A stretch of 57,372 nucleotides of DNA from a virus. Taxonomy: Duplodnaviria; Caudoviricetes. Under the pieces are notes generated by a model. The model was given only the letters and a program-made list of their open reading frames with translations. It ran no database searches and was not told where the DNA came from. This document shows, piece after piece, positions 2,641 through 57,372 of this stretch (positions are counted from its first letter, which is position 1; every line of letters begins with the position of its first letter). The stretch spans positions 1 to 57,372 of IMG/VR virus record IMGVR_UViG_3300037483_000275. One strand, given 5' to 3'. Made by a program: the position numbers and the translations under genes.

Positions 2641-3913
2641 GGAACATGCCGCGCTGTTGGCGGAACTGGAGGCGTACAACTCGAAGGACAACCTGAAGGA
2701 CGACGAGACTGTCCTGGCCAACAAAAAGGCCGAGGTCTGTCTCAAGCTGCAAGAAGAGATCGATGCGTGGGAGGTACGCGAGCGCATCCTCGCCAAAGGG
2801 CGGGAACTGGGCAAAGACTTACCCCTGCCCACGGGGAAGGTGCAGGAAGAGGACGAGAACCAGAAGACGCAGGACATCGCTGGGTTCATGACGCCGGGCG
2901 ACTACTTCGTCACGTCCCGTGAGTTCAAGAGCTTCCAAGCGGGGTTGGTCCGGGAAACCAACCCGTTCGGGATGCCCAAGCTATACCAGAGCAAGTCAGG
3001 CGGGTATCTCGTCCCGATCACCAAGGCCGAGCGGCACGCCTTCCAGTCCAAGGCATCGGACCTGACGCTCAATGCGGGTGTGATCGATCCCATGCGGCTC
3101 CCGGAGATTGTCCGGGCCACGGAATTCGACCAGCTCACCCTGCTCAGCGTCGTCAACACCAGCCCCACATCATCGCCGTCCATCACGTATCGCCGGGTGA
3201 ATCCCTTCGTCCGGGGCGCGGCTCCCGTGGCGCCGTCTGACCCGAAGCCCGACGCCACCGCGACGGTGGAACTCATCACTTGGAACGTGTTCACGCATGC
3301 GGTCACTCTAGTCGTGACCGAGCAGCAACTGGCGGATGCGTCCCAGGTCGTGAACGAGATCAACACCCACCTGCTCTATGACCTCGACAAGCTCACTGAA
3401 GAGCAGATGACCTATGGACCGGGTGGCGGCCAAAACCACACCGGATTTTTTGTGGACACGGGGATTACCGAAGCCCGCACGGTGTCCGGTGACACCCTCA
3501 TGGACAAGATCCGCCGGGCCATCACCGACATTCGCCGGAATGGCTATTCCCCGAACGTGGTCTACATGGATTCGCTGGACTGGGAAGCGATCGAACTCCA
3601 GAAAGTTGCCGCCTCGGATAACCGGTACGTCTGGGCCATCGTGCGCGACGTGCTGGGTGCCCGTATCTGGTCGCTTCGGGTGGTCGAAGGAAAGTCAGCC
3701 GAGAACAGCCTGACCGGCGAGCGCAACGTGCTGGTTGGGGACTTCAACCGCGGCGCGACTCGCTGGGTCCGTGAGGCGGTCGCGCTGGCGATGGGTTGGG
3801 TCAACGATCAGTTCCTCCGGAATGAGCGGACGATCCGAGCTGAGGGACGGGATGCGTTCGGCATCACCCGCCCGGGTGCCTTCAAGAAGATTCAGACCGA
3901 GGCCGGCAGCTAA
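2603..3913 (+). CDS. HK97-fold major capsid protein with N-terminal coiled-coil (delta) domain
   Basis: GGAG upstream of ATG 2603; GGYLVP, LVGDF, DQFLRNERTIRAEGR...RPGAF motifs; position after the protease. Confidence 0.93.
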   Translation: MSTNTAGIDAKRKEHAALLAELEAYNSKDNLKDDETVLANKKAEVCLKLQEEIDAWEVRERILAKGRELGKDLPLPTGKVQEEDENQKTQDIAGFMTPGDYFVTSREFKSFQAGLVRETNPFGMPKLYQSKSGGYLVPITKAERHAFQSKASDLTLNAGVIDPMRLPEIVRATEFDQLTLLSVVNTSPTSSPSITYRRVNPFVRGAAPVAPSDPKPDATATVELITWNVFTHAVTLVVTEQQLADASQVVNEINTHLLYDLDKLTEEQMTYGPGGGQNHTGFFVDTGITEARTVSGDTLMDKIRRAITDIRRNGYSPNVVYMDSLDWEAIELQKVAASDNRYVWAIVRDVLGARIWSLRVVEGKSAENSLTGERNVLVGDFNRGATRWVREAVALAMGWVNDQFLRNERTIRAEGRDAFGITRPGAFKKIQTEAGS

Positions 3914-3923
3914 TGCGGCTTCA

Positions 3924-3982
3924 CCGGGAAAGCACCGAGTGCCTGTGCTTTGGATTGGGCGGGGTTCGACTCCCCGCCCCGG
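3924..3982 (+). ncRNA. tRNA-like element (T-arm plus short acceptor-like stem, no D-arm)
   Basis: CCGGG/CCCGG outer stem, AAAGCAC/GTGCTTT hairpin, GGATTG linker, GCGGGG-TTCGACT-CCCCGC T-arm. Confidence 0.5.
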
Positions 3983-3986
3983 GTTT

Positions 3987-5819
3987 ATGAACCGTCTCGC
4001 ACGGGTCAAGGCACTGAAGGCGCATCGCCACAGCGGTGTGACCTACGGGCCGGGGGCGGAATACACCATCCCCCGGCACAAACTGGTGGCTTATGCCGGC
4101 CGGGGCTGGGTGCGGCTCGTGGAATCGTCGCTCTCGTGGCATGATCTTCCGGGCCGGGAACTGCGGATCACCCCGACGGGTGTTCACCCCCCGCCGGTCG
4201 TCGCCTGCTGCTGCATCTGGGACCATGCCAACGCCTTCGCCGTGGCCTTGCCCACCTGGCTTCCGGGTATCGATGCGCTGGTCGTAGCCGACGGGCCCTA
4301 TCGGGACACCGGACATCGAGGGCCGTCCTCAGATCATCTCCGGGACGTGTTGGCAAAGTGTCCCGTCCCAGTCCATGAGGTCCCATGGGATAAGGTCTGC
4401 TGGTCCGACCAGCCGACGAAGCGTACCGCGCTACTCAAGGAAGCGTCGCGGCTCTATCCCAACGCGACATTGGTCATCCTAGACGCGGACGAGCTGCTGA
4501 GCCACGCGCAAGTGCTTCGGGAGTTTGGTGCCGACGTGGGTTGGGTCCAGGTCACCAGTCCGCTGTATAACCGGCCAGCCGATCAGCCCCGTCTCTTCCG
4601 GGCACACCCGGAATTGCACTACGACCAGCGGCACCATTGGCTCTATCGTGGTGACCAATTCCTGGCCTCGCATCAGTACGGCGGAACCGGCGTGCTGCAT
4701 CAGTTGGTGCCGGTGCATCTGCATAACGAGCGGAATATGGGGCTCTCCCAGTCCCGGCTTCAGGCCAAACATCGCTATTCCGCCTCACGGTCATTGCGGG
4801 AATCGGGTGCCCGCGTCTCTCCACAGACCGCCAAAAGCGACCAGTCACTCACGGGCCGGGAGACGCTGCGGATTCTCCAGGTTGCCAATTACGACGTGGG
4901 CTTGGTGATCTATCGGCTCCATACCGCGATCAACTGCACCACACCCCATGCCTCGGTATTCGGGGTGCAGCGGAGCATGAACCCGTTTCACGTCCCGAGC
5001 CAGTATCAGACTGACAACCGGGACGGGCGGGTCAAGCTCCAAGAACTCGCGCGTGATGCGGACGTGGTGCATTGCCACTTGAACTATTTCCCAATCCAGC
5101 AACTCCGTCTCCCTGGTGGGAAACCGATTGTGATCCATCACCACGGGACGATGTTCCGTCGCAGTCCGTCTACCTGGGCCAGTCGGGACCGTCAAGCAGC
5201 CTTACGGCTGGTGAGCAACTTGGAATTGCTCCAGTACGGCACTGACCTGCACTGGCTCCCGAACCCCATGCCAGTCGCGGAGTACCGGAGACTCCGGAAA
5301 GGCTATGTCCCGGGTCCCGTGTTCCGGCTGGGCCACTCCCCGTCACGGCGACTGCGGAAGGCGACGGACGTACTGATTGCAGTCGTCAAGGAACTCCAGA
5401 AACAGGGATTGAAGATCGAACTGGTACTGATGGAAGGAATGCGGCACGAACAGGTCATCCGCACCAAGGCCACCTGTGATGCGCTCTTCGATTCTTTCTC
5501 GCTCGGGATCCAGTGTTCCGGGCTCGAAGCCGCGGCGATGGAGATGCCGGTGATCGCCGGCGACTCGCATGTCGCGAAGGAATACCGGGAACGGTTGGGA
5601 GCGGTGCCGTACACCTACGCCAATGAGGCAAACGAACTCAAAGACGTGATAGAACGACTGGTGACAGACCAGGACTACAGGCAAGCGGAAGCTGCGCGCG
5701 TCTCCACCTACTGCGTGACATTTCACGATGAGGCGGCTGTCGCTCTCCGCTACCTGGACCTCCTGGACAACGCGATCAGCTGGCGCAGTGGCCATAAAAT
5801 GGGACGGGTGCCGGCATGA
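3987..5819 (+). CDS. Two-domain glycosyltransferase (GT-A-like N-half, GT-B/GT4-like C-half) with a short N-terminal domain
   Basis: LVVADG and VILDADE (DxD) motifs; ADVVHCH, IVIHHHG and GLEAAAMEMPVI GT4-type motifs; ATG 3987 preferred to avoid overlapping the capsid gene. Confidence 0.8.
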   Translation: MNRLARVKALKAHRHSGVTYGPGAEYTIPRHKLVAYAGRGWVRLVESSLSWHDLPGRELRITPTGVHPPPVVACCCIWDHANAFAVALPTWLPGIDALVVADGPYRDTGHRGPSSDHLRDVLAKCPVPVHEVPWDKVCWSDQPTKRTALLKEASRLYPNATLVILDADELLSHAQVLREFGADVGWVQVTSPLYNRPADQPRLFRAHPELHYDQRHHWLYRGDQFLASHQYGGTGVLHQLVPVHLHNERNMGLSQSRLQAKHRYSASRSLRESGARVSPQTAKSDQSLTGRETLRILQVANYDVGLVIYRLHTAINCTTPHASVFGVQRSMNPFHVPSQYQTDNRDGRVKLQELARDADVVHCHLNYFPIQQLRLPGGKPIVIHHHGTMFRRSPSTWASRDRQAALRLVSNLELLQYGTDLHWLPNPMPVAEYRRLRKGYVPGPVFRLGHSPSRRLRKATDVLIAVVKELQKQGLKIELVLMEGMRHEQVIRTKATCDALFDSFSLGIQCSGLEAAAMEMPVIAGDSHVAKEYRERLGAVPYTYANEANELKDVIERLVTDQDYRQAEAARVSTYCVTFHDEAAVALRYLDLLDNAISWRSGHKMGRVPA

Positions 5820-6379
5820 GCGGGATGACAGCCGCTCGGCTCTCGGCAATTCGCGCCCGGCATCCCGGGGTGAAACACATCCGGGTGTTTGCGGAAACGG
5901 GGACCTATCTCGGCCAACGCGCTTCACTGGCGAAAGGACAATTCGACCGTGTCTACACCGTAGAACTTTCCGCCACGCTCTATGAGAACGCGAAACGGGC
6001 GCATGCGGAACGGGGCATCGTCTTCGAGCAGGGGGATAGCCGGAACGTGGTACGGCGATGGGCCCTTGAATTACTGGAACCCGTAGTCTGGTATCTCGAC
6101 GCCCACTGGTTCAACGGTAATAAAGCGGGACTGGTGTCAGAACGGGCGAAGGCGGGACAAGTGGCCGGTCAGGGTGAAGGGCTGCCGCTCTGGGAGGAGT
6201 TGGACGCGATTGCGGCTCGCCCGTATCGGGATGTGATTGTGGTGGACGACGTGCGGGACTTCGGGACCGAGCAACCGACGCCGGAATGGAAAGACGTCTC
6301 GCTCTCGAAGATAGCTTCCTTCTTTCCAGGACACCGGGAAGCGGTGGTCCTGCATGACCAAGCGGTCGTGTACCGATGA
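5816..6379 (+). CDS. Class I SAM-dependent methyltransferase-like protein
   Basis: VFAETGTYLG motif I, YTVELS, QGDS, WYLDAH, IVVDDVR. Confidence 0.7.
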   Translation: MSGMTAARLSAIRARHPGVKHIRVFAETGTYLGQRASLAKGQFDRVYTVELSATLYENAKRAHAERGIVFEQGDSRNVVRRWALELLEPVVWYLDAHWFNGNKAGLVSERAKAGQVAGQGEGLPLWEELDAIAARPYRDVIVVDDVRDFGTEQPTPEWKDVSLSKIASFFPGHREAVVLHDQAVVYR

Positions 6380-7113
6380 TCGTCTCCGTCCTCGTGCCCA
6401 CGTACAACCGGCCCGCATTTCTGGCGGAATGCCTGGCTTCCTTGGCGAAGCAGACGCTTCGGCGGGACGCATACGAAGTCCTGGTCCTAAATGATGGCGG
6501 GGACCCGGTACTGGAGGTGGCGCGGAACGCCGGTTTGCGGCAGTGGCAGTATCGGGACTTGCCTCACAAGGGCCAAAGCGGAGCATGTAACGCGGGACTG
6601 GCTTTAGCGCAGGGTGAGTACCTGACGGTGGCCCATGATGACGACTTGGTGCTGCCTGACAAACTCCTAACGCTGTCAGCGTCGATGCGGGACCGCGACG
6701 TGGTGTATGGCTTGCCCCAGTACACCGACATTCGCGGCATACCAACCTACATCCCGCCCCTACTCCGACCGTTTCAGGAGAAATATCCGGTCCTGACCTG
6801 GCAGGACATCGAAGCCGGGTCGGGACTCTGGGTCCATGGGACGGCCACGATGTATCGGACCTCGGTACTCAAGGACATCGGCGGATGGGATGAAGAGTTA
6901 CCCACGGCGGAAGAGTATGACCTGCACCTCCGGTTGCTCTACGCGGGCCATGCGTTTCATGCGGTGCCCCGCGAAGTCGTGACCTACCGAGCGGGTGGGA
7001 AGTCCAGGACGCCGGCCGTGCGAGCGCAACGGGCCGACGCCTTCACTCGGATTTACGCCAAGTTCGGGACCGATCGCGTGGCCTATAACGCAAAACTGAC
7101 GGAGGTCCAGTGA
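6376..7113 (+). CDS. Family 2 glycosyltransferase
   Basis: VSVLVPTYNR, VLNDGG, NAGLALAQGEYL..HDDD, GGWDE...EEYDLHLR. Confidence 0.92.
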   Translation: MIVSVLVPTYNRPAFLAECLASLAKQTLRRDAYEVLVLNDGGDPVLEVARNAGLRQWQYRDLPHKGQSGACNAGLALAQGEYLTVAHDDDLVLPDKLLTLSASMRDRDVVYGLPQYTDIRGIPTYIPPLLRPFQEKYPVLTWQDIEAGSGLWVHGTATMYRTSVLKDIGGWDEELPTAEEYDLHLRLLYAGHAFHAVPREVVTYRAGGKSRTPAVRAQRADAFTRIYAKFGTDRVAYNAKLTEVQ

Positions 7114-24915: not shown

Positions 24916-26475
24916 ATGATGGCTGACAGATGGCGCGTTCTCGGTCTTCTCGCCCTAGCGGCCTGCACGGCGCCCACCGATTCAGACCTCCAGAATCCCA
25001 CGCTCGCCGTGGGTTCCCCGGAGGCTCGCGCCTACATCGTGACGCTGGCCCGGGGTGTGGACGCGCAGTCCATTGCACACGCCCACGGGCTAACGCCACG
25101 GTTCGTCTACCGTTCGGCCCTGACGGGGTTCGCGGCGGAGATTCCGGACCAGGCCATCGAAGGGTTGCGGCGGAATCCCCTGGTCCAGTCTATCGAGTTA
25201 GATGGAATCGCCACAATACAGACTGACCAAGTGAATCCCCCCTCTTGGGGATTAGACCGGATTGACCAGCGCCTCCTGCCATTGAACCAGCTCTACGCCT
25301 ACGAAACCCAAGGTAGCGGAGTCACCGCTTACATCATCGACACGGGGATACACACTCATTCCGAATTCGCGGGGCGGCTCACCTCCGGATACGATTTTAT
25401 CGACAACGATGCGGATGCGGATGATTGTCATGGGCATGGGACCCATGTCGCGGGGACCGTGGCCGGGACCACGGTCGGCGTGGCGAAGCAAGCCAGTCTA
25501 GTCGCGGTGCGTGTGCTGGGGTGCAATGGGAGCGGGACGTGGTCCCAGGTGATTGCGGGAGTGGATTGGGTGGTGGCGAATGCCCGCCGCCCCGCTGTGG
25601 CGAATATGTCGCTGGGTGGTGGGCGGTTGGATGCGGTCAACTTGGCGGTGGATAATGCCGTGGTGGCGGGAATCGTCTTTGCTGTCGCGGCGGGCAATAA
25701 CGGGTCGAATGCGTGCAACCTCTCCCCGGCCGGCGCGGGGAATGCGCTGACAACGGGCGCCACTGACATCACCGATACCCGTGCCACGTTCTCCAATTTC
25801 GGAACCTGCCTGGATGTGTTTGCGCCTGGGGTGAACATCCGGTCGTCCGTGCAGAACGGCGGATATGAGAACTGGAACGGGACCTCCATGGCGACGCCCC
25901 ATGTCGCGGGCGTGGCCGCGCTGGAATTGGCGGCCTATCCTGCGGCGAGTGCGTTTGAAGTGAACGCGGCCATCAAGGGCTACGCGACGCCGGACCGGGT
26001 CGTGAATGCGGGGACCGGATCACCGAACCGTTTGCTGTTTAGCCTGATCACCACTTTTAGTCTGCCTGCTCCGGAGCCACCGACACCGCCGCTACCGCCG
26101 CTTCCACCCCCTCCTCCACCTTCCCCTTCCGTCGTGGTGCATATCGGGGATCTGGACGGGTCCGCGATGACAAAGCCTCGTGGCCATGGTCCTTGGAAAG
26201 TGTCGGTGTCTGTCCTAGTGCATGACGGCAACCATGCGCCGGTCGCCGGAGTCCAGTCAACCGGCAAGTTCGATGGGGCGCTGCACGCGTGTAGTACTGG
26301 ACCCGATGGACGATGCACCATGACCGCGGCCGTGTCGGCCAAGAAGGCGAGCGTCACGTTTGAGGCGGGTGGGATCTACTCCAAGGATGAGCGGGTCATC
26401 TTTTACGACTACAACCTCTATCATGATCCAGACGGTGACAGCGACGGACGCCGCCTAGTTGTACCGCGGATCTAA
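24916..26475 (+). CDS. S8 subtilisin-family (aqualysin/proteinase K-like) serine protease lipoprotein with I9 prodomain
   Basis: Lipobox LAAC; catalytic [26 protein letters not shown]; Pro-rich linker and C-terminal beta domain. Confidence 0.95.
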
Positions 26476-29920: not shown

Positions 29921-30742
29921 TCAGACTTCACGGACCCAACGCCAGCAAAGGAGTGCTAGCCCGGCGCCGGCCAGTACGTCCACGACGTAATGCTCCCCCA
30001 AGTAGACTAGCGCCAGTCCCATCGCACCGGTATACACCCCTCCGACGATCATCCACGGGGTGCGCCATGCGCCGAGCATCGTCATGGTGGCGGCGGCGGC
30101 ATGCACCGATGGCATAGCGGCCACGTCATTGCCTCCCGCGACGGAGAGCCCATACTCGTAAAAGCCCGGTGTCAGCCCACCTAACAAGTCGGAGACCGGC
30201 CGGTAGACCGTCGGAAGCAGCCCCATCTGAGCTGCGATCCAGGGTGGCGCGGTTGAGCACAGGACATGTGTCAGGATGGAGAGCCCGAAGACACCGACCA
30301 TACCCAAGAGGACGGGCCGGAGCTGGGCTGGGCGGAAGCGCCAGAGAAGGAGCCCCAGTCCGGGGATCGCCAGAAAGTAGGAGAGATGGATGCCTAACGC
30401 CGCATAATCCCACCACTGGGGAGTCCCAGGGGAGTAGAACCGTTGCTGGAGCTGGACGGTCGGGATGATGGGCCCGGCCAGGATCTGATCGAGTACAATG
30501 GGATAGCGCACAAACACGGGGCCGATTACGTCCGCAATATCTCGCAGGTAGGCAAAGGCGAAAAAGGCCAGGATATAGACGGCCCAGAGGTTAAAGGTCC
30601 GGGATTGGCCCTTGATGCCGGTATAGGCGACGGGAATCACTAGGATCATTGCACTAAGCAGGGTCATGATGCCGCGCGGGATCATGAGCAGCGCCATCAG
30701 GGCCACGAGCAGGACGGTGCGGAAGAGGTCGGACTTTTTCAC
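29921..30742 (-). CDS. PAP2-family, Aur1/inositolphosphorylceramide-synthase-like membrane protein
   Basis: TAPPW, AAMPSVHAA and VYLGEHYVVDVLAG motifs; multiple TM. Confidence 0.85.
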   Translation of the reverse strand: MKKSDLFRTVLLVALMALLMIPRGIMTLLSAMILVIPVAYTGIKGQSRTFNLWAVYILAFFAFAYLRDIADVIGPVFVRYPIVLDQILAGPIIPTVQLQQRFYSPGTPQWWDYAALGIHLSYFLAIPGLGLLLWRFRPAQLRPVLLGMVGVFGLSILTHVLCSTAPPWIAAQMGLLPTVYRPVSDLLGGLTPGFYEYGLSVAGGNDVAAMPSVHAAAATMTMLGAWRTPWMIVGGVYTGAMGLALVYLGEHYVVDVLAGAGLALLCWRWVREV

Positions 30743-31276: not shown

Positions 31277-31555
31277 ATGAGTTTTCGCGTCGTCTTTCGT
31301 GCCACTAAGGCGTTGCCCGATCTGAGCATGGAATTGGGTGACGTACTCGTCTGGGACACCAATTTTGCCCGGCCGTTCCGAGTTGTTCACGCCATTGAGC
31401 CCGACATGGGGGTCGTGGGTATGGCCGAAGCCAACGGGCATCTGGAGATGGTCAGCCACCAGTCCCGTGGTCGCGCCCTTCGTCTGGTCCGTGCCCCTCG
31501 GCTTCCTCTGCCGCTTCGGCTGCGCTCTCGCCATCCTTCGCATTCCGCAGGGTAG
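31277..31555 (+). CDS. Hypothetical protein, convergent with the repressor
   Basis: Protein-like composition and AAGGA upstream; 3' end overlaps the repressor 3' end. Confidence 0.35.
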   Translation: MSFRVVFRATKALPDLSMELGDVLVWDTNFARPFRVVHAIEPDMGVVGMAEANGHLEMVSHQSRGRALRLVRAPRLPLPLRLRSRHPSHSAG

Positions 31556-31898
31556 ATGATCGGCCATCGTCATGGCCGGCCCGGTAGGCTTGCTCCAACA
31601 GAAGGCGAGCCGCCCCGCTCCACCCGCGGAGGAGCCGCTGGACGTGCCGTGGCAAGGCGACGATGTGTCCCAGGCTTGGTATACTGTCCTCTGAGCCCTC
31701 CCCACGCAGCCACCATACCGGAACTCCGGTAGCCCGTTCCAAAGCCTTCCAGTAGGCGTTTGAGATCCGCCCGGTCTTGCCGAGTTCCCAATTTCCGATG
31801 GTCTCCTTATTCACGCCAATGATGTACGCGAGGTCGATTTGGGTGAGACCGGCGTGCCTTCGGGCGCGTAGAATCCGGCTGTCAGTTGGTGTCGGCAA
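31452..31898 (-). CDS. CI-like XRE-family HTH repressor
   Basis: RARRHAGLTQIDLAYIIGVNKETIGNWELG...VPVWWL; divergent from the early operon; AAGGGG before the TTG start. Confidence 0.88.
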   Translation of the reverse strand: MPTPTDSRILRARRHAGLTQIDLAYIIGVNKETIGNWELGKTGRISNAYWKALERATGVPVWWLRGEGSEDSIPSLGHIVALPRHVQRLLRGWSGAARLLLEQAYRAGHDDGRSSTLRNAKDGESAAEAAEEAEGHGPDEGRDHGTGG

Positions 31899-33228: not shown

Positions 33229-33617
33229 GCGCCACGGCAAGTATCGAGCACGGGGTTAGAGCGTACCGCAAAGGCTGTCGGTGTGCAGAGTGTCGCGCGG
33301 GTCAAAGGGAGTATGTACAGGAACGGCGCAAACGGAATCCCGAGAAATTTGCACAGTACAACAAGAACAAGAAGCGCAACCCCGAGAAGGCTGCTCAGTG
33401 GAACAAGGAATGGCGTAAACGAAACCCGGATAAGGTACGGGCCTCAGCAGCGAAAGCACGAAAGCAGTGGAACAAGACACACCCGGAAGAGGCGGCACGT
33501 CGGTACGCCGCGTACCTGCAAAGGCGCGAGGACCGAGGCCAGCAACAGGCGGAGCATAGGCCATACCGCGATCGGATTAGCGATGCTCTCCGCGACTGGC
33601 CAGGAGACGACGAGTGA
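33225..33617 (+). CDS. Basic Zn-binding protein (HG..AY..GCRC..C motif)
   Basis: HGVRAYRKGCRCAECR followed by RNPEK repeats. Confidence 0.55.
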   Translation: MSATASIEHGVRAYRKGCRCAECRAGQREYVQERRKRNPEKFAQYNKNKKRNPEKAAQWNKEWRKRNPDKVRASAAKARKQWNKTHPEEAARRYAAYLQRREDRGQQQAEHRPYRDRISDALRDWPGDDE

Positions 33618-33796
33618 GCCACGTCAGCGACAATGACCCCACGCAATCGGAGCCCTGGTATGACGACGACGAGCCCGAGACGTACCAGTGCATCATCTGC
33701 GGGGAACAGGTCGAGGTCTTCGAGTTAGCGGAGAAGGACCCCCCGATTTGCGAGAACTGCAGCGACAGGGACGACCGATGGGAGGACTCGGAATAA
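33614..33796 (+). CDS. Small acidic Zn-ribbon protein
   Basis: CIIC...CENC. Confidence 0.5.
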   Translation: MSHVSDNDPTQSEPWYDDDEPETYQCIICGEQVEVFELAEKDPPICENCSDRDDRWEDSE

Positions 33797-33856
33797 AAGT
33801 ACCGGGCCAGCGGCTCCCGGTGCAAAGCCGCTACCAACGCATAAGGAATGATTCAC

Positions 33857-34645
33857 ATGGCAAAGGCAAAGGTCACGACGACAGAGGTTGAAGCCACCAT
33901 CCTTGAGGTCAAGCGGGAACGCCTGACGGTGTACGTCGTCGGGGAAACTCCGCTGATCCCGCACGCGATGGCGGCCAAGGCCAAGGAAGAATTACTGCTC
34001 CCCGGCCGACCGAAGAATCGAGCCGAGAAACTGTCCACCGCCAAGCACGATCCGATCGCGGAGTATCGGGACTGCTTCGACCGGGCACGGAAGCCCGAGG
34101 CGGCAACGGCGATTCTCGCGAAGGCGACATGGTTCAAGGGGGCCATGATGACGGCAGCCCTCGACCAGCCGGGCGTGTTCAAGTCCACCATCGGGCGGCT
34201 GTGCTGGGTCCACGGAGACTACAGCTCCGACATGATCCACCTGTACGGGATTCCTCAACTCAAGATGGACGTGGTGCGACAGGCTGGGCAGAACAAAGCA
34301 CCTGACATTCGGAGCCGTCCCTGCCTCGCCCGCTGGTGCTGCCAGATCACGGTGGGCTACAGCGTGCCGCTGATCGCGGAGCGCGACGTGGTGAATCTCC
34401 TGGCGGCGGGTGGGATTACTAGCGGCGTCGGTGACTGGCGGGTCCAGAAGGGTTCGGGGAGCTTCGGCCAGTACCGGCTTGCCACGGCGAATGATCCCGA
34501 AGTGAAAGAGATCATGCGGACGGGCGGGACGGCGACACAGCTCAAAGCCATCGAAGCGCCCGAGTACTACAACGAGGAAACCGCAGACCTGATGGAATGG
34601 TACCTCGAAGCCAGCGCCGCTCGCGGCCTGAGAAAGGTGTCCTGA
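33857..34645 (+). CDS. Solo RAMP/Cas7-like RRM protein, candidate RNA-guided effector
   Basis: LTVYVVGETPLIPH (beta1 plus TPL), ILAKATWFKGAMM (xPxxxxKG-like helix), C-terminal Gly-loop GITSGVGDWRVQKGSGSFGQY; AAGGA RBS. Confidence 0.75.
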   Translation: MAKAKVTTTEVEATILEVKRERLTVYVVGETPLIPHAMAAKAKEELLLPGRPKNRAEKLSTAKHDPIAEYRDCFDRARKPEAATAILAKATWFKGAMMTAALDQPGVFKSTIGRLCWVHGDYSSDMIHLYGIPQLKMDVVRQAGQNKAPDIRSRPCLARWCCQITVGYSVPLIAERDVVNLLAAGGITSGVGDWRVQKGSGSFGQYRLATANDPEVKEIMRTGGTATQLKAIEAPEYYNEETADLMEWYLEASAARGLRKVS

Positions 34646-34649
34646 TCCG

Positions 34650-35123
34650 ATGGAAGCCAGTAAGAAGGAACTGGTCCGGGTGCGGCTGGACGCCCTGGCC
34701 GAGAAGCACGACGGGCTGCTGACCCCCGAGATGGTGGTCGCGGATGCCAAGAACCCCAAGAGCCCGCTGCACGAGCACTTCGTGTGGGACACAAAGAAGG
34801 CCGCCGCCCAGCACTGGCTAGACACAGCCCGCATGCTGATTCGCAGTGTCCGGGTGGTGGTGGTGACCGAGCACAGCGTGTTGTCCTCGGTGGCTTATGT
34901 CCGGGACTCCAGTCTGCCGGGAGACCAGCAGGGCTATCGCTCCCTGGCCTCAATCAAGAGTGACCGGGACCGGGCGCGGGAGACGGTGATGGCGGAGTTC
35001 CTGCGGGCCGAAGGCGTGATGCGGCGGGCGCGGGAGATCGCGGAAGTACTCGACCTGAGCGAGGACGTGGACGAGATCATCGAGAAGATCGACACGACTC
35101 GACAGAAGGCGCAGACGGCATAA
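34650..35123 (+). CDS. Partner protein between the RAMP-like gene and the array
   Basis: LTPEMVVADAKNPKSPLHEHFVWD...ARMLIRSV; 4 nt after the RAMP-like stop. Confidence 0.7.
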   Translation: MEASKKELVRVRLDALAEKHDGLLTPEMVVADAKNPKSPLHEHFVWDTKKAAAQHWLDTARMLIRSVRVVVVTEHSVLSSVAYVRDSSLPGDQQGYRSLASIKSDRDRARETVMAEFLRAEGVMRRAREIAEVLDLSEDVDEIIEKIDTTRQKAQTA

Positions 35124-35132
35124 AGAAAAAAA

Positions 35133-35235
35133 GGGGGGTATAGGATCGCCCTCGGGTAAGGCTGTGATGAATTACTTGCGTCCTCGCAGTCTGGTTGGTT
35201 CCAACGCAAGGGAACTGCCCGGTTCTATACTCCTC
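35133..35235 (+). ncRNA. Structured leader RNA upstream of the array
   Basis: 13-bp closing stem (35133-45/35223-35), inner stem, two hairpins with complementary loops (CTTGCGT/ACGCAAG). Confidence 0.55.
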
Positions 35236-35253
35236 CCATTTCCCCATTTGCTG

Positions 35254-35688
35254 GGTTGATGCGGATAGGTCGGGACGGGTGTGGCAAGGTTTGTTCGGGT
35301 GCGGACTGGTAAGGCGGGGCGGGGAAAGGCCGTAGAGGTTAGGCGCGGGATGGACTGGTCAGGCAAGTCATGGTTAGGTGGGGTACGGAAGGGCTGATGA
35401 GGCGAGGCGCGGTTTGTTCGGGAACGGATGGGATGGGAAAGGTTGGGATAGGCAAGGACTGGCTGATGCGGACGGGGCAAGGACTGGCCGATGCGGACGG
35501 GGTAAGGACTGGCGCGTTTTGGATAGCCCAGGCGTGGTACGGAACGGTGCGGCTGAAGCGGTGAGGCGCGGATCGGATGGGCCAGGTACGGCGAGCTGAG
35601 GATTGGCTGATGCGGCAGAGGTAACGTTTGGACTGGTGAGGATGGGCTTGGAGAGGTCGGGACAGGCGCGGTTAGGAAAGGCCGATGT
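35254..35688 (+). repeat. Non-coding GG-H-NN pentamer array with 9-nt delimiters (candidate guide-RNA array)
   Basis: Delimiters at 35254, 35328, 35392, 35461, 35486, 35551, 35605, 35680 separate runs of 13, 11, 12, 3, 11, 9 and 13 GG-led units. Confidence 0.9.
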
Positions 35689-35705
35689 GGACGAGGGGGG
35701 TACGC

Positions 35706-35915
35706 ATGACACTCAACGACCGACTCATGAATTGGCTGGATAAGCAGACGGCGTATGCGTACTCCATCCTTGCCTACACCCTAAAGGGCGACTGGCACGT
35801 CGAAATCCACTACAGATCCGGTGCGCGAATCGACACCCAAGCCGCGACCCTGCGGCAAGCGGTCCTCGAAGCACGGCTGGAACGGGAGCGGAGCCGGAAG
35901 GTGGAGGCGGCGTGA
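35706..35915 (+). CDS. Hypothetical protein
   Basis: GAGGGGGG RBS at the end of the array; coupled to the next ORF. Confidence 0.55.
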   Translation: MTLNDRLMNWLDKQTAYAYSILAYTLKGDWHVEIHYRSGARIDTQAATLRQAVLEARLERERSRKVEAA

Positions 35916-46530: not shown

Positions 46531-47339
46531 GTGACCGAACGGGAATCGGCTGGACTGACGCAACGTGGAATCCGGCAACGGGATGCTCGCACGTCTCACC
46601 CGGCTGTCTGAACTGTTACGCCGAATTCCTATCCCTTCAGAAAGGCTGGTCAACGAAGCCGTGGACGGCACCAAACGCAGCCGAGAATGTCGTTCTCCAT
46701 CCGGATCGATTGGCGCAGCCGATGAGCTGGCGGAGGCCGCGGCGAGTCTTCGTCAACTCGATGAGCGACCTATTCCACGAGCAGATCCCCGACCACTTTA
46801 TTGACCGGGTGTTTTGGACGGCTCGCTTCACTCCTCAACACACCTACCAAGTGCTAACGAAGCGGCCCGAGCGAATGCGGGTATACCGTCCTCAATGGGC
46901 TAACCGATCGCTCGGGTTATTCGATCTCTGGCCTTTACCGAATGTCTGGCTGGGTGTGTCGGTTGAGGACCAGCGGCGACTCGGGGAACGCATTGGTCTT
47001 CTCTGTGAGACGTCGGCGGCAGTCCGCTTTCTCTCGTGCGAGCCCCTGTTAGGTCCGCTGGACTTCGCGAAGGTCGGGGGGATGGGCCCGTTGAAGGCTG
47101 GTCTGACCTCACCAGTCGCTGGGATGGACTGGGTCATCGTCGGGGGTGAGAGCGGGATCAAGCGGCGGGAGATGGACGTGTCTTGGCTCACCGGTGTTGT
47201 CGACCAGTGCCGGGCCGCGTCGGTGCCGGTATTCGTTAAGCAGGACTCTGGGCGGCTTCCTGGGAAACAAGGTCGCATCCCGGCGGAGTACTGGGTTCAG
47301 GGGTACCCGGAGCAGATTGTCGGGGGACGGGCCCGGTGA
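46527..47339 (+). CDS. DUF5131 / phage gp37-gp68 family radical-SAM-like protein
   Basis: IGWTDATWNPATGCSHVSPGCLNCYA, FVNSMSDLFHE, LTKRPER, EPLLGP, WVIVGGESG. Confidence 0.92.
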   Translation: MSDRTGIGWTDATWNPATGCSHVSPGCLNCYAEFLSLQKGWSTKPWTAPNAAENVVLHPDRLAQPMSWRRPRRVFVNSMSDLFHEQIPDHFIDRVFWTARFTPQHTYQVLTKRPERMRVYRPQWANRSLGLFDLWPLPNVWLGVSVEDQRRLGERIGLLCETSAAVRFLSCEPLLGPLDFAKVGGMGPLKAGLTSPVAGMDWVIVGGESGIKRREMDVSWLTGVVDQCRAASVPVFVKQDSGRLPGKQGRIPAEYWVQGYPEQIVGGRAR

Positions 47340-48400
47340 GCCCGCGGATTCGGACGATTAAACCCGAGTTTTGGACGGATAGTATCATGGTGCAATTGCC
47401 GCACCAAGCCCGGCTCTTCTTTATAGGGCTCTGGAGTATGGCCGATGACCATGGGTGGCTCCCCGATGAACCTGAGCGGCTACGACTCCAAATCCTGCCG
47501 GCCGAGAAGGCAGACACGTCGTCTCTTGTTGACCTGTTGGTGGCGGCGGGGAGACTTGAACAACACGAGTTCCAGGATGGGGAGCGGTGGTTGTACATCC
47601 CGGCTTGGAAGAAGCACCAGCGGGTTGACCATCCGAGCCCATCCCGGAAACCAACAACTCCCTCGCGAAAGCTCGCGATCCCACAAGAGGTGCGGCGGGC
47701 AGTGGCAACGAAGTACGGCTGTCGTCCAGGGGGCCAGAAGAAGGCAGCATGTTACTACTGTGGTGCCACTGGGCACATCTACTGGATGCGGTTGTCTGAT
47801 GGACGCCCCAGTTCGTGGGTGTATTTCTCGCTTGAGTTGGATCACTGCGAGCCAGAAAGTGCTGCTGGTCAAGCGGTTACGGAGAACATTGTCCTGGCGT
47901 GTCGCACCTGTAACCGTTCCAAAGGCACCCGCTCATTTGCGGATGTTCTGGGAGGTCTCGCGAACTTTCGCGAGCCATCGCGCCTGAATGGAAGGGAAAA
48001 GGAAGAGGAAGAGGAAATACAAACTACTGAGTGGCGGAAAACGTTCGAGTTAGCATGGTCTTCCTACCCGAAGCGTCCTGGGAACCCGAAGGAAAAAGCC
48101 TGGAAGGCATGGCAAGCCCGGCTAAAGGAAGGCGTGACTGCGGAGGCATTGTTCAATGGCGTAACGAAGTACGGGGCCATGTGCCGGCGAGAGAAAACTG
48201 AACCCCGATTCATCAAAATGGCCGCGACTTTCTTTGGACCAGATAAGCATTGGGAAACTGACTACACGCCTGTTGGGTCAGCTAAACCTCCTGAGACGCG
48301 CCACAGCCCGGCCTACCACGAGAAGTACAAACCGCCGGATGTTACGGAGACGGACCCGCGGGTATTGGGTCTAGTGAAGCAAGTGGGGAGGCCCGCATGA
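47336..48400 (+). CDS. Replication initiator with internal HNH-like domain
   Basis: RIRTIKPEFW N-terminus; CYYC...LDHCEP...NIVLACRTCNRSK; C-terminal FELAWSSYPKR...AWKAW domain. Confidence 0.75.
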   Translation: MSPRIRTIKPEFWTDSIMVQLPHQARLFFIGLWSMADDHGWLPDEPERLRLQILPAEKADTSSLVDLLVAAGRLEQHEFQDGERWLYIPAWKKHQRVDHPSPSRKPTTPSRKLAIPQEVRRAVATKYGCRPGGQKKAACYYCGATGHIYWMRLSDGRPSSWVYFSLELDHCEPESAAGQAVTENIVLACRTCNRSKGTRSFADVLGGLANFREPSRLNGREKEEEEEIQTTEWRKTFELAWSSYPKRPGNPKEKAWKAWQARLKEGVTAEALFNGVTKYGAMCRREKTEPRFIKMAATFFGPDKHWETDYTPVGSAKPPETRHSPAYHEKYKPPDVTETDPRVLGLVKQVGRPA

Positions 48401-57033: not shown

Positions 57034-57254
57034 ATGATCGGTACCTTCCCTCTCACCAAGCCCGGCCGGTTCACTAAAAACGGCCACCTGCCAAGTATTA
57101 AGGGCGGGATCACCGCATTTCCACCCGAGTTGTTCTTTGACTTCCCCGGTAACCCGTTTGACCTCCAAACTGCACGTGACCGGCTCATCATCGGCTACAA
57201 AGCCTATGCCTCGGTCCCGTTGGTCTATCGCTGCATGCGGATCCGGGCTGACAA
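57034..57254 (+). CDS. Portal protein, N-terminal part (joins 1..1891 across the circular junction)
   Basis: ATG at 57034 preceded by GGGGAG; AYASVPLVYRCMRIRADKLS is a typical HK97-portal N-terminal motif; in frame with 17..1891 (joined product 703 aa). Confidence 0.9.
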
Positions 57255-57364
57255 GCTCAGTGAACCACCGATGCGGCTCCAGAAAGAGACGAAGGACGGG
57301 TTGGAGTGGGTGGAGAACAACCCGCTGGAGGATCTGTTCGACCAGCCCAACCCGGACATGAGCT
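57255..57364. repeat. Terminal direct repeat copy 2, followed by adapter remnant AGATCGGA (57365-57372)
   Basis: Exact match to 1-110; AGATCGGA is the start of the Illumina adapter and creates an artefactual stop codon. Confidence 0.95.
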
Positions 57365-57372
57365 AGATCGGA

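Follow-up and report, generated by a model that had tools for sequence, protein, structure and literature searches.

Does the locus at positions 33857–35700 of an environmental phage genome, where a solo RAMP protein gene and a partner gene are followed by a non-coding tract of GG-phased pentamers, encode an RNA-guided system, and, if so, of which family? The stretch of DNA analysed here, called the window below, is the whole of the IMG/VR virus record IMGVR_UViG_3300037483_000275 (57,372 bases, 61.6% G+C). An earlier note, made from the letters of the window without database searches, had proposed such a system and remarked on a resemblance to the VIPR systems. The present analysis favors, with a probability of roughly 0.88, a VIPR system with a staggered array, situated in an early rightward operon near a CI-like repressor; that the locus belongs to the VIPR family at all is very likely.

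The first descriptions of VIPR (Viral Interference Programmable Repeat) date from 2026 (bioRxiv 10.64898/2026.04.26.720920, 10.64898/2026.04.26.720927). According to the first of these reports, a system consists of a Vipr RAMP and one accessory gene (vap), lacks cas genes as well as CRISPR arrays, and is found mostly in viruses and proviruses; its vrRNAs carry 9–16 YNNGG repeats, and the NN bases read double-stranded DNA with a one-base skip, which leads to transcription silencing of competing phages and satellites (10.64898/2026.04.26.720920). The same survey distinguishes seven types among 667 catalogued systems, reports the alternative repeats NNNGG, YNNNG, and NNNNG, and in its methods calls internal degeneracy of vrRNAs frequent (10.64898/2026.04.26.720920). 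VIPR has been proposed as an ancestor of the CRISPR RAMPs; its recognition of DNA is non-contiguous and RNA-guided.

The RAMP protein and its partner

The first gene of the locus, vipr (33857..34645, plus strand), encodes a 262-amino-acid RAMP (Cas7-like) protein, as identified from its open reading frame (ORF), its AlphaFold2 model, and its family profile. An alternative ATG start at 33848 would give 265 amino acids; the start at 33857 is favored because the homologue N-termini read MAK or MSK. The three RAMP hallmarks that the earlier note had pointed out, namely, TPL, a KG helix, and a C-terminal Gly-rich loop, are all present, and in the alignment of 46 homologues on which conservation was scored they are retained: P32 of the TPL motif after strand 1 occurs in 90% or more of the homologues, and K94 of the FKG motif in helix 1 as well as G190, G192, D193, R195, and G204 of the G-loop GVGDWRVQKGSGSFG (residues 190–204) are invariant.

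No Pfam family is matched by this protein or by its 157-amino-acid partner, and a PHROGs search with the vipr protein leads to an unnamed family only. The AlphaFold2 model built from the 46-sequence alignment (predicted local distance difference test, pLDDT, 87.8; predicted template modelling score, pTM, 0.83) has an RRM core with strand 1 at residues 19–29, a helical insertion at about 40–72, helix 1 at 90–101, a long β-hairpin “thumb” at 127–170 (strands 127–139 and 151–170), the G-loop at 190–204, and a clade-specific extra C-terminal helical part at about 213–255. Compared by Foldseek with the PDB, the model matches 38 chains at E ≤ 0.001; the matches listed are Cas7-family subunits, the best being type VII Cas7 and Csm3 (E from 3.8e-5 to 1e-4). 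VIA-align, a search made without Foldseek, places Csm3 (9g9a_D, Z 9.0, root-mean-square deviation 3.5 over 150 aligned residues) and Cmr4 (6s6b_I, Z 8.9) at the top, its ranks 1–26 are occupied by CRISPR RAMP subunits only (Z from 9.0 down to 6.3), and the first non-RAMP protein appears at rank 27. The structural comparison with Cas7, Csm3, and Cmr4 that the earlier note had suggested bears out the fold it expected; as modelled, the 262-amino-acid protein is a RAMP with a confident Cas7-type fold.

The likeness to the Cas7-family backbone subunits (Csm3, Cmr4, type VII Cas7, and gRAMP domains) extends to the RRM core, the G-loop, and the thumb hairpin (Foldseek E 3.8e-5; VIA-align Z from 9.0 to 8.0), at a sequence identity of 9–17%. 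Cas7 proteins polymerise along guide RNA with a fixed step, and so does SUSP1 Vipr. For the Cas7 family, this step is 6 nucleotides (nt) on a free spacer, whereas the window has a step of 5 nt with a fixed GG.

A class 1 CRISPR-Cas identity (type III or VII) was considered and rejected: the RAMP fold is shared, but a repeat scan of the window found no CRISPR-like spaced repeat, and none of its 72 other ORFs matches a cas family (Pfam, E ≤ 1e-4). Unlike class 1 systems, the window has no repeat–spacer array, Cas5, Cas6, Cas10, Cas1, Cas2, or other cas genes; the earlier reader, too, had seen no cas1, cas2, cas6, or CRISPR.

The sequence itself points to a closer relative. A PDB search with the single protein gave one match, 36pp_D (“SUSP1 Vipr protein”), with an E value of 1.2; the 46-sequence profile improves this to 1.5e-7 (profile positions 145–199, 34 bits), the runner-up standing at E 1.2. 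The alignment extends from the thumb base through the G-loop and pairs R154, D193, W194, and R195 of the vipr protein with R138, D177, W178, and R179 of SUSP1, R154, D193, and R195 being invariant in the 46 homologues. According to the structural work on SUSP1, D177 and H17 bind the first guanine of the pentamer, R138 and W178 hold the second, R179 with C173 and others forms a third-base pocket from which purines are excluded, D177A or R138A abolishes silencing, and cryo-electron microscopy shows one protomer per pentamer, that is, a 5-nt step (10.64898/2026.04.26.720927). The likeness to VIPR remarked on in the earlier note is supported by a profile match in which the GG-contact residues are kept, and, judged by its sequence, the 262-amino-acid protein is a Vipr-family RAMP. 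The type II system of Escherichia phage SUSP1 and the window share the homologous protein with the thumb arginine and the D-W-R of the G-loop, the 5-nt repeat step, an operon of two genes, and the downstream position of arrays; they differ in protein length, 202 amino acids in SUSP1 against 262 with the extra C-terminal helical part in the window.

The second gene (34650..35123, plus strand) is a vap-like accessory gene, as judged from its ORF, a PHROG match, and the loci of relatives. Its 157-amino-acid product, correctly placed by the earlier note after the 262-amino-acid ORF, matches PHROG 15946 (unknown function; E 3.3e-13). In the AlphaFold2 model (pLDDT 89.2, pTM 0.63), an N-terminal α/β part (residues 5–102) is joined to a C-terminal helical hairpin (residues 106–156). 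Searches with it gave little: the VIA-align rows are restricted to the hairpin, to which a variety of unrelated proteins can be matched with Z up to 8.4, Foldseek returned no match at E ≤ 0.001 and weak rows that include MarR/PadR-type winged-helix proteins at E 0.4–1.8, a PDB profile search found nothing below E 0.084, and the ESM Atlas contained unnamed viral clusters only. The accessory protein probably assists at the DNA target.

The GG-pentamer array in the window and in related loci

Past the partner gene lies the array (35260–35682, 423 nt), which is read as 81 in-register pentamers, 65 of them starting with GG and 64 conforming to GGH; the remaining 16 of the 81 lack the GG. The periodicity of G and of GG peaks at 4.95 nt. 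A scan of all 57,372 bases for period-5 GG power (200-nt sliding windows, 50-nt step) placed its ten best windows at starts from 35151 to 35601 (power 1.17–4.72), the best value elsewhere being 0.79. For 35260–35682 as a whole the period-5 power is 13.97, and none of 2000 first-order Markov surrogates reached it (maximum 1.93); the claim of a GG-phased pentamer array is borne out by these values, and no comparable tract exists elsewhere in the window on either strand. The array is not protein-coding in pattern, since its 5-nt period differs from any coding period, and the ORFs overlapping the tract match no family. On one strand, 48% of the tract is G. Position 1 of the pentamer is G in 94% of cases and position 2 in 81%, and positions 4–5 are near uniform. 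The third base after GG (66 units) is A at 0.35, C at 0.29, T at 0.32, and G at 0.05, so that the description as GGH with many GGA units, not strict GGY, stands. With A at about one third of the units, the third-base pocket of this clade must differ from that of SUSP1, presumably by being wider. Departures from the canonical repeat are on record elsewhere: among 99 period-5 VIPR-like clusters from metagenomes, 21 have non-canonical fixed triplets (10.64898/2026.10.21.760802).

A five-phase GG model applied to the whole window resolves the array into four abutting plus-strand segments and finds no segment on the minus strand. Segment 1 (35260..35330) has 13 pentamers, 12 of them GGH-NN, and segment 2 (35331..35394) has 12, ten with a GG start; both end with GGC at a −1 junction. 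Segment 3 (35395..35553) comprises 31 pentamers in a single register, 23 with a GG start, and segment 4 (35554..35682) comprises 25, of which 20 start with GG. All on the plus strand, the segments abut directly, no non-repeat tail is shared between the units, and at each of the three junctions the register is shifted by −1 relative to the preceding one. These junctions read GGC C GTAGA, GGC T GATGA, and GGC T GAAGC (pattern GGC-Y-G-W-W-G); of the 11-nt junction motif, the array region holds eight copies, the rest of the plus strand three, and the minus strand none. Two of its in-register likenesses, at 35461 and 35486, lie in segment 3 within a 25-nt tandem duplication (35451..35513, plus strand; Tandem Repeats Finder, 2.5 copies, 94% matches, unit GGCAAGGACTGGCCGATGCGGACGG), and segment 4 contains internal junction-like motifs at 35605 and 35680. 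We also observe that the 12-mer GGTTTGTTCGGG is common to segments 1 and 3 (35289–35300 and 35411–35422). Both the duplication and the shared 12-mer point to growth of the arrays through local copying of their units.

In the VIPR survey, the legend of fig. S18 describes staggered arrays in which adjacent vrRNAs overlap by 1 nt, and in the accessible text small-RNA sequencing support is stated for the ribozyme-interspersed and single-vrRNA architectures only (10.64898/2026.04.26.720920). With such staggered-array systems, the window shares a solo Vipr RAMP, one accessory gene, same-strand GG-anchored pentamers, a 1-nt offset between abutting units, a viral location, and the lack of cas genes and CRISPR; it differs in its third base, H in place of the published Y.

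Between the partner stop and the array runs a leader (35124..35259, 136 nt, plus strand) that is predicted to form a three-way junction. The folded leader noted earlier is borne out in part: the stretch 35124–35262 folds at −53.5 kcal/mol (z −2.52), somewhat better than shuffles, with two of 200 equally stable. Its sequence is not kept in locus L082, the closest relative with flanks, with whose leader it cannot be aligned, and we treat the folded leader as unproven. The self-structure of the array gives z −1.24. An Rfam scan in and around the array, leader included, returned two noise rows only (E 8.2 and 9.3) and no hammerhead. After the array, a G-rich ribosome-binding-like stretch precedes the next small gene, likely starting at 35706.

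Relatives of the locus are numerous. A word-indexed search yielded 128 proteins matching the vipr family at E ≤ 1e-3, and among representatives at 50% identity the vipr profile matches 5,254 at E ≤ 0.001, 2,832 at 1e-10, and 613 at 1e-30. When IMG/VR was searched by pattern instead, 515 of the 524 matched stretches encoded a relative; in a search of cellular genomes, this was the case for one of 19 pattern stretches, on a 2.5-kb contig of a metagenome-assembled genome.

Eighty viral loci were kept for counts of architecture. In 78 of them an ORF of at least 80 amino acids begins at the vipr end, and in 73 a homologue of the partner lies directly 3′ of vipr (E from 4e-47 to 3e-7). GG-pentamer segments occur on the vipr strand in 77 loci, and any on the opposite strand in ten. 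The downstream 5-nt periodic GG arrays that the earlier note had proposed to look for in homologues were found, on the same strand, in 75 of the 80 loci, 70 of these arrays beginning 400–750 nt after vipr, i.e., past the partner gene. Three loci have no array, one of them with only 356 bases of downstream sequence. An array upstream of vipr is seen in 13 loci (L002, L009, L024, L025, L032, L035, L042, L045, L049, L052, L058, L060, and L063), and in 11 of these vipr is flanked by arrays on either side; the arrangement is reminiscent of SUSP1, for which one vrRNA upstream and three downstream are described.

The median array of the relatives measures 436 nt, so that the 423 nt of the window are typical. 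Internal segments have a median length of 54 nt, and the length is 4 modulo 5 in 355 of 543; at abutting junctions the register shifts by −1 in 510 of 633 cases and by −2 in 105. Across 421 distinct junctions, the consensus takes two forms, GGYNH-GGCA|GGC and, where the first pentamer is degenerate, GGC[A/G]GTC; the three junctions of the window fit the latter. A staggered GGH array is also present in L082, which is the nearest of the relatives with flanks at 66% protein identity; its genes align with those of the window at 67% over 1,168 nt, whereas the array sequences are unrelated, and the array of the window aligns with no other array. Some arrays are very long: those of L008 and L014 reach at least 2.3 kb (34 called segments, from 699 to beyond 3000 nt after vipr), and L084 (3869–5735) has an array of at least 1.87 kb made of almost pure GGC-NN units.

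A further observation concerns the third base. In 78 loci or records (L001–L088), each with at least 20 GG units, its preference tracks the residue before GVGDWR, which is S189 in the window and occupies the position of C173 in SUSP1. Lineages with S or N there accept A (mostly 0.14–0.63), those with M prefer T (about 0.65–0.77), and those with I, V, or Q mostly prefer C (0.7–1.0); the pattern is confounded by relatedness, and exceptions exist.

Guide function and rival explanations

If the locus works as the solved system does, the array would, by homology with SUSP1, be co-transcribed with the early operon, and Vipr protomers would coat the RNA, one per pentamer. R154 of the thumb and D193, W194, and R195 of the G-loop would grip both guanines and turn the third base outward, leaving the two variable NN bases of each unit on display. 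A coated unit of some 10–14 pentamers would then read double-stranded DNA in the rhythm of NN paired, one target base skipped, and NN paired again, and would block transcription of its target; rival phages, satellites, or prophages are where such targets most likely lie. The array most likely yields guide RNAs against rival genetic elements, as far as the present analysis can tell. How the guides are separated is a point on which we offer a proposal of our own: the 4-nt (or 9-nt) spacing at the GGC-N-G junctions may interrupt the register of the filament and mark the guide ends, the one-base deficit breaking the 5-nt step and so delimiting the guides; neither a 3′ tail nor a ribozyme nor a Cas6-type nuclease would be required.

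The targets themselves were sought in two places. A study that shows VIPR to decide phage–satellite competition relies on NN?NN scoring and a shuffled-guide null (10.64898/2026.10.15.759431), and both were applied here as well. In the window, a self-scan with six guides under the NN-skip-one rule and 200 shuffles for each gave best matches at 61–72% of the NN bases, and the shuffled guides did equally well in 105–199 of the 200 trials. In IMG/VR, exact seeds of 18 and of 20 specified bases had no matches, and five seeds of 16 specified bases had 5, 22, 7, 57, and 5, with agreement beyond the seed at chance level; the best totals were 20/26, 22/28, 20/24 (4/8 beyond the seed), and 20/26, and for a 10-unit guide the seed by itself already makes up 80%.

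Several observations weigh against the assignment to a staggered-array VIPR system that silences competitors. The search for natural targets came up empty both within the phage and, with seven seed patterns, in IMG/VR, and the guide RNAs and their processing sites are predicted from the DNA letters, none of four runs listed being an RNA data set that contains the locus; a consensus scan for promoters and terminators made no call within 33857–35700. The profile match to the SUSP1 protein spans about 55 residues, H17, the N-terminal contact of SUSP1, cannot be aligned to the vipr protein, and the PDB library used with Foldseek, dated to 2026-04-08, lists no Vipr entry, so that the model was compared with CRISPR RAMPs. 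With 31 and 25 pentamers, segments 3 and 4 exceed the published 9–16 repeats, and the sole points at which they could be divided are junction-like motifs without a change of register. SUSP1 vrRNAs are described as being transcribed separately, each about 100 nt long and carrying an invariable 3′ tail or pseudoknot, and their units as GGY with purines excluded, whereas the units of the window abut without tails and have A as commonly as C or T. Finally, in 103 locus pairs with alignable arrays, the mismatch at pentamer positions 1–5 is 0.08, 0.09, 0.14, 0.22, and 0.26, the value for the flanking genes being 0.10, a pattern that agrees, at the sequence level, with a scaffold that is fixed and guide positions that are free to vary, but the count is partly circular because the repeats align on the GGs. 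The lack of 3′ tails argues against a type II architecture, not against the VIPR family, since the family includes tail-less staggered arrays.

The failure to find a competitor target would be expected if a VIPR-family ribonucleoprotein had another job here, acting on RNA targets or regulating the phage's own or host genes at the lysis–lysogeny decision. The position immediately downstream of a CI-like repressor and early genes would suit such a role, as would the extra C-terminal helical part of the clade and a partner with no named family, and SUSP1 Vipr filaments are reported to pair with single-stranded RNA as well, although incompletely (10.64898/2026.04.26.720927). We nevertheless consider this role unlikely: the self-scan gave no match above chance, and the published systems, as described, act on the double-stranded DNA of satellites and prophages (10.64898/2026.04.26.720920, 10.64898/2026.10.15.759431).

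Two further explanations start from the tract itself. It could act as DNA, protein-binding or G-quadruplex-prone, at an origin, pause, or recombination site, and simply travel with the RAMP gene; its strand bias in G, its place just 5′ of recombination and replication genes, and the fact that the array has been seen here only as DNA would all be compatible with this. The same-strand link to vipr in 75 of the 80 loci and the fixed place past the partner gene make it very improbable, as does a period of the same length as the 5-nt step in the solved structure of a Vipr filament, with the guanine-binding residues kept; moreover, GG is fixed while positions 4–5 vary, which a guide code predicts and a structural DNA element does not. 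Or the locus could be a decaying or inactive VIPR remnant with a drifted array, given the 16 pentamers without GG, the frequent A at the third position, and the 25-nt tandem duplication in segment 3. We give this scarcely any weight, since both genes are intact with their key residues conserved and internal degeneracy is called frequent in published vrRNAs (10.64898/2026.04.26.720920). Tolerance of A is common to whole lineages, the closest relative L082 included, and thus looks like a property of the clade and not like decay.

On the reading of the locus as a staggered-array VIPR system, the junctions and the third base can be joined in one tentative proposal, which we regard as possible but rather doubtful: in this large clade, guide boundaries would be written as register alone, and the third-base preference would be set by the residue before the GVGDWR loop. 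Each GGC-N-G junction, by lacking a single base, would end one filament and let the next begin, and a long transcript of the operon would in this way be divided into guides with neither tail nor ribozyme nor dedicated nuclease. In the protein, S or N at that residue would tolerate A, M would prefer T, and I, V, or Q would prefer C, which would amount to a small “specificity code.”

The phage record and the place of the locus in the family

The source is an uncultivated, environmental, high-GC tailed phage of the temperate type; megablast found no close relative of the window among 50,697 deposited phage genomes. The left half of the window carries structural and lysis genes (portal, prohead protease, head–tail adaptor, Ig-domain structural protein, and amidase). 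A CI-like helix-turn-helix repressor lies on the minus strand at 31452–31898, and after it begins the rightward early operon that contains the vipr locus, in agreement with the early-region location proposed in the earlier note. After the locus, the operon continues with genes for an exonuclease, HNH nucleases, an integrase-like protein, a Holliday-junction resolvase, a C5 methyltransferase, a replication initiator, and the large terminase. The vipr locus is thus carried by a viral record with portal, prohead protease, terminase, amidase, CI-like repressor, and replication genes.

Some features of the record are separate from the question of the locus. Its first 110 bases (1–110) are identical to the last 110 (57255–57364), and the portal gene is divided over the ends, with the N-terminal part at 57034–57366 and the remainder at 17–1891; together, the identical ends and the split portal make the genome look circularly closed or terminally redundant, with a length of about 57.26 kb. 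The record is classified as linear and 72% complete, despite the identical ends. In the structural half (3735–7113, 24916–26475, and, on the minus strand, 29921–30742) there are two glycosyltransferase-like genes, a gene for a subtilase-family S8 peptidase, and a minus-strand gene for a PAP2-family phosphatase, which may be accessory (moron) genes. The replication-initiator homologue (47336–48400) has an HNH nuclease domain inserted mid-protein (residues ~135–205), between two parts that match initiator families. Immediately 5′ of vipr lies a 60-amino-acid zinc-ribbon-like ORF (33614–33796), with weak matches to Pfam Zn_ribbon families (E 6.5e-4 and above).

VIPR itself is already published and surveyed, and the window adds a further member with a relaxed third base; the locus opens no new class. 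It is a clean environmental high-GC example from a very large Vipr clade, and as such it is useful for asking by what means staggered arrays become separate guides and what in a Vipr protein determines its third-base specificity. If it is true, a specificity code of the kind proposed above would match each Vipr to its own arrays and avoid capture by rival vrRNAs.

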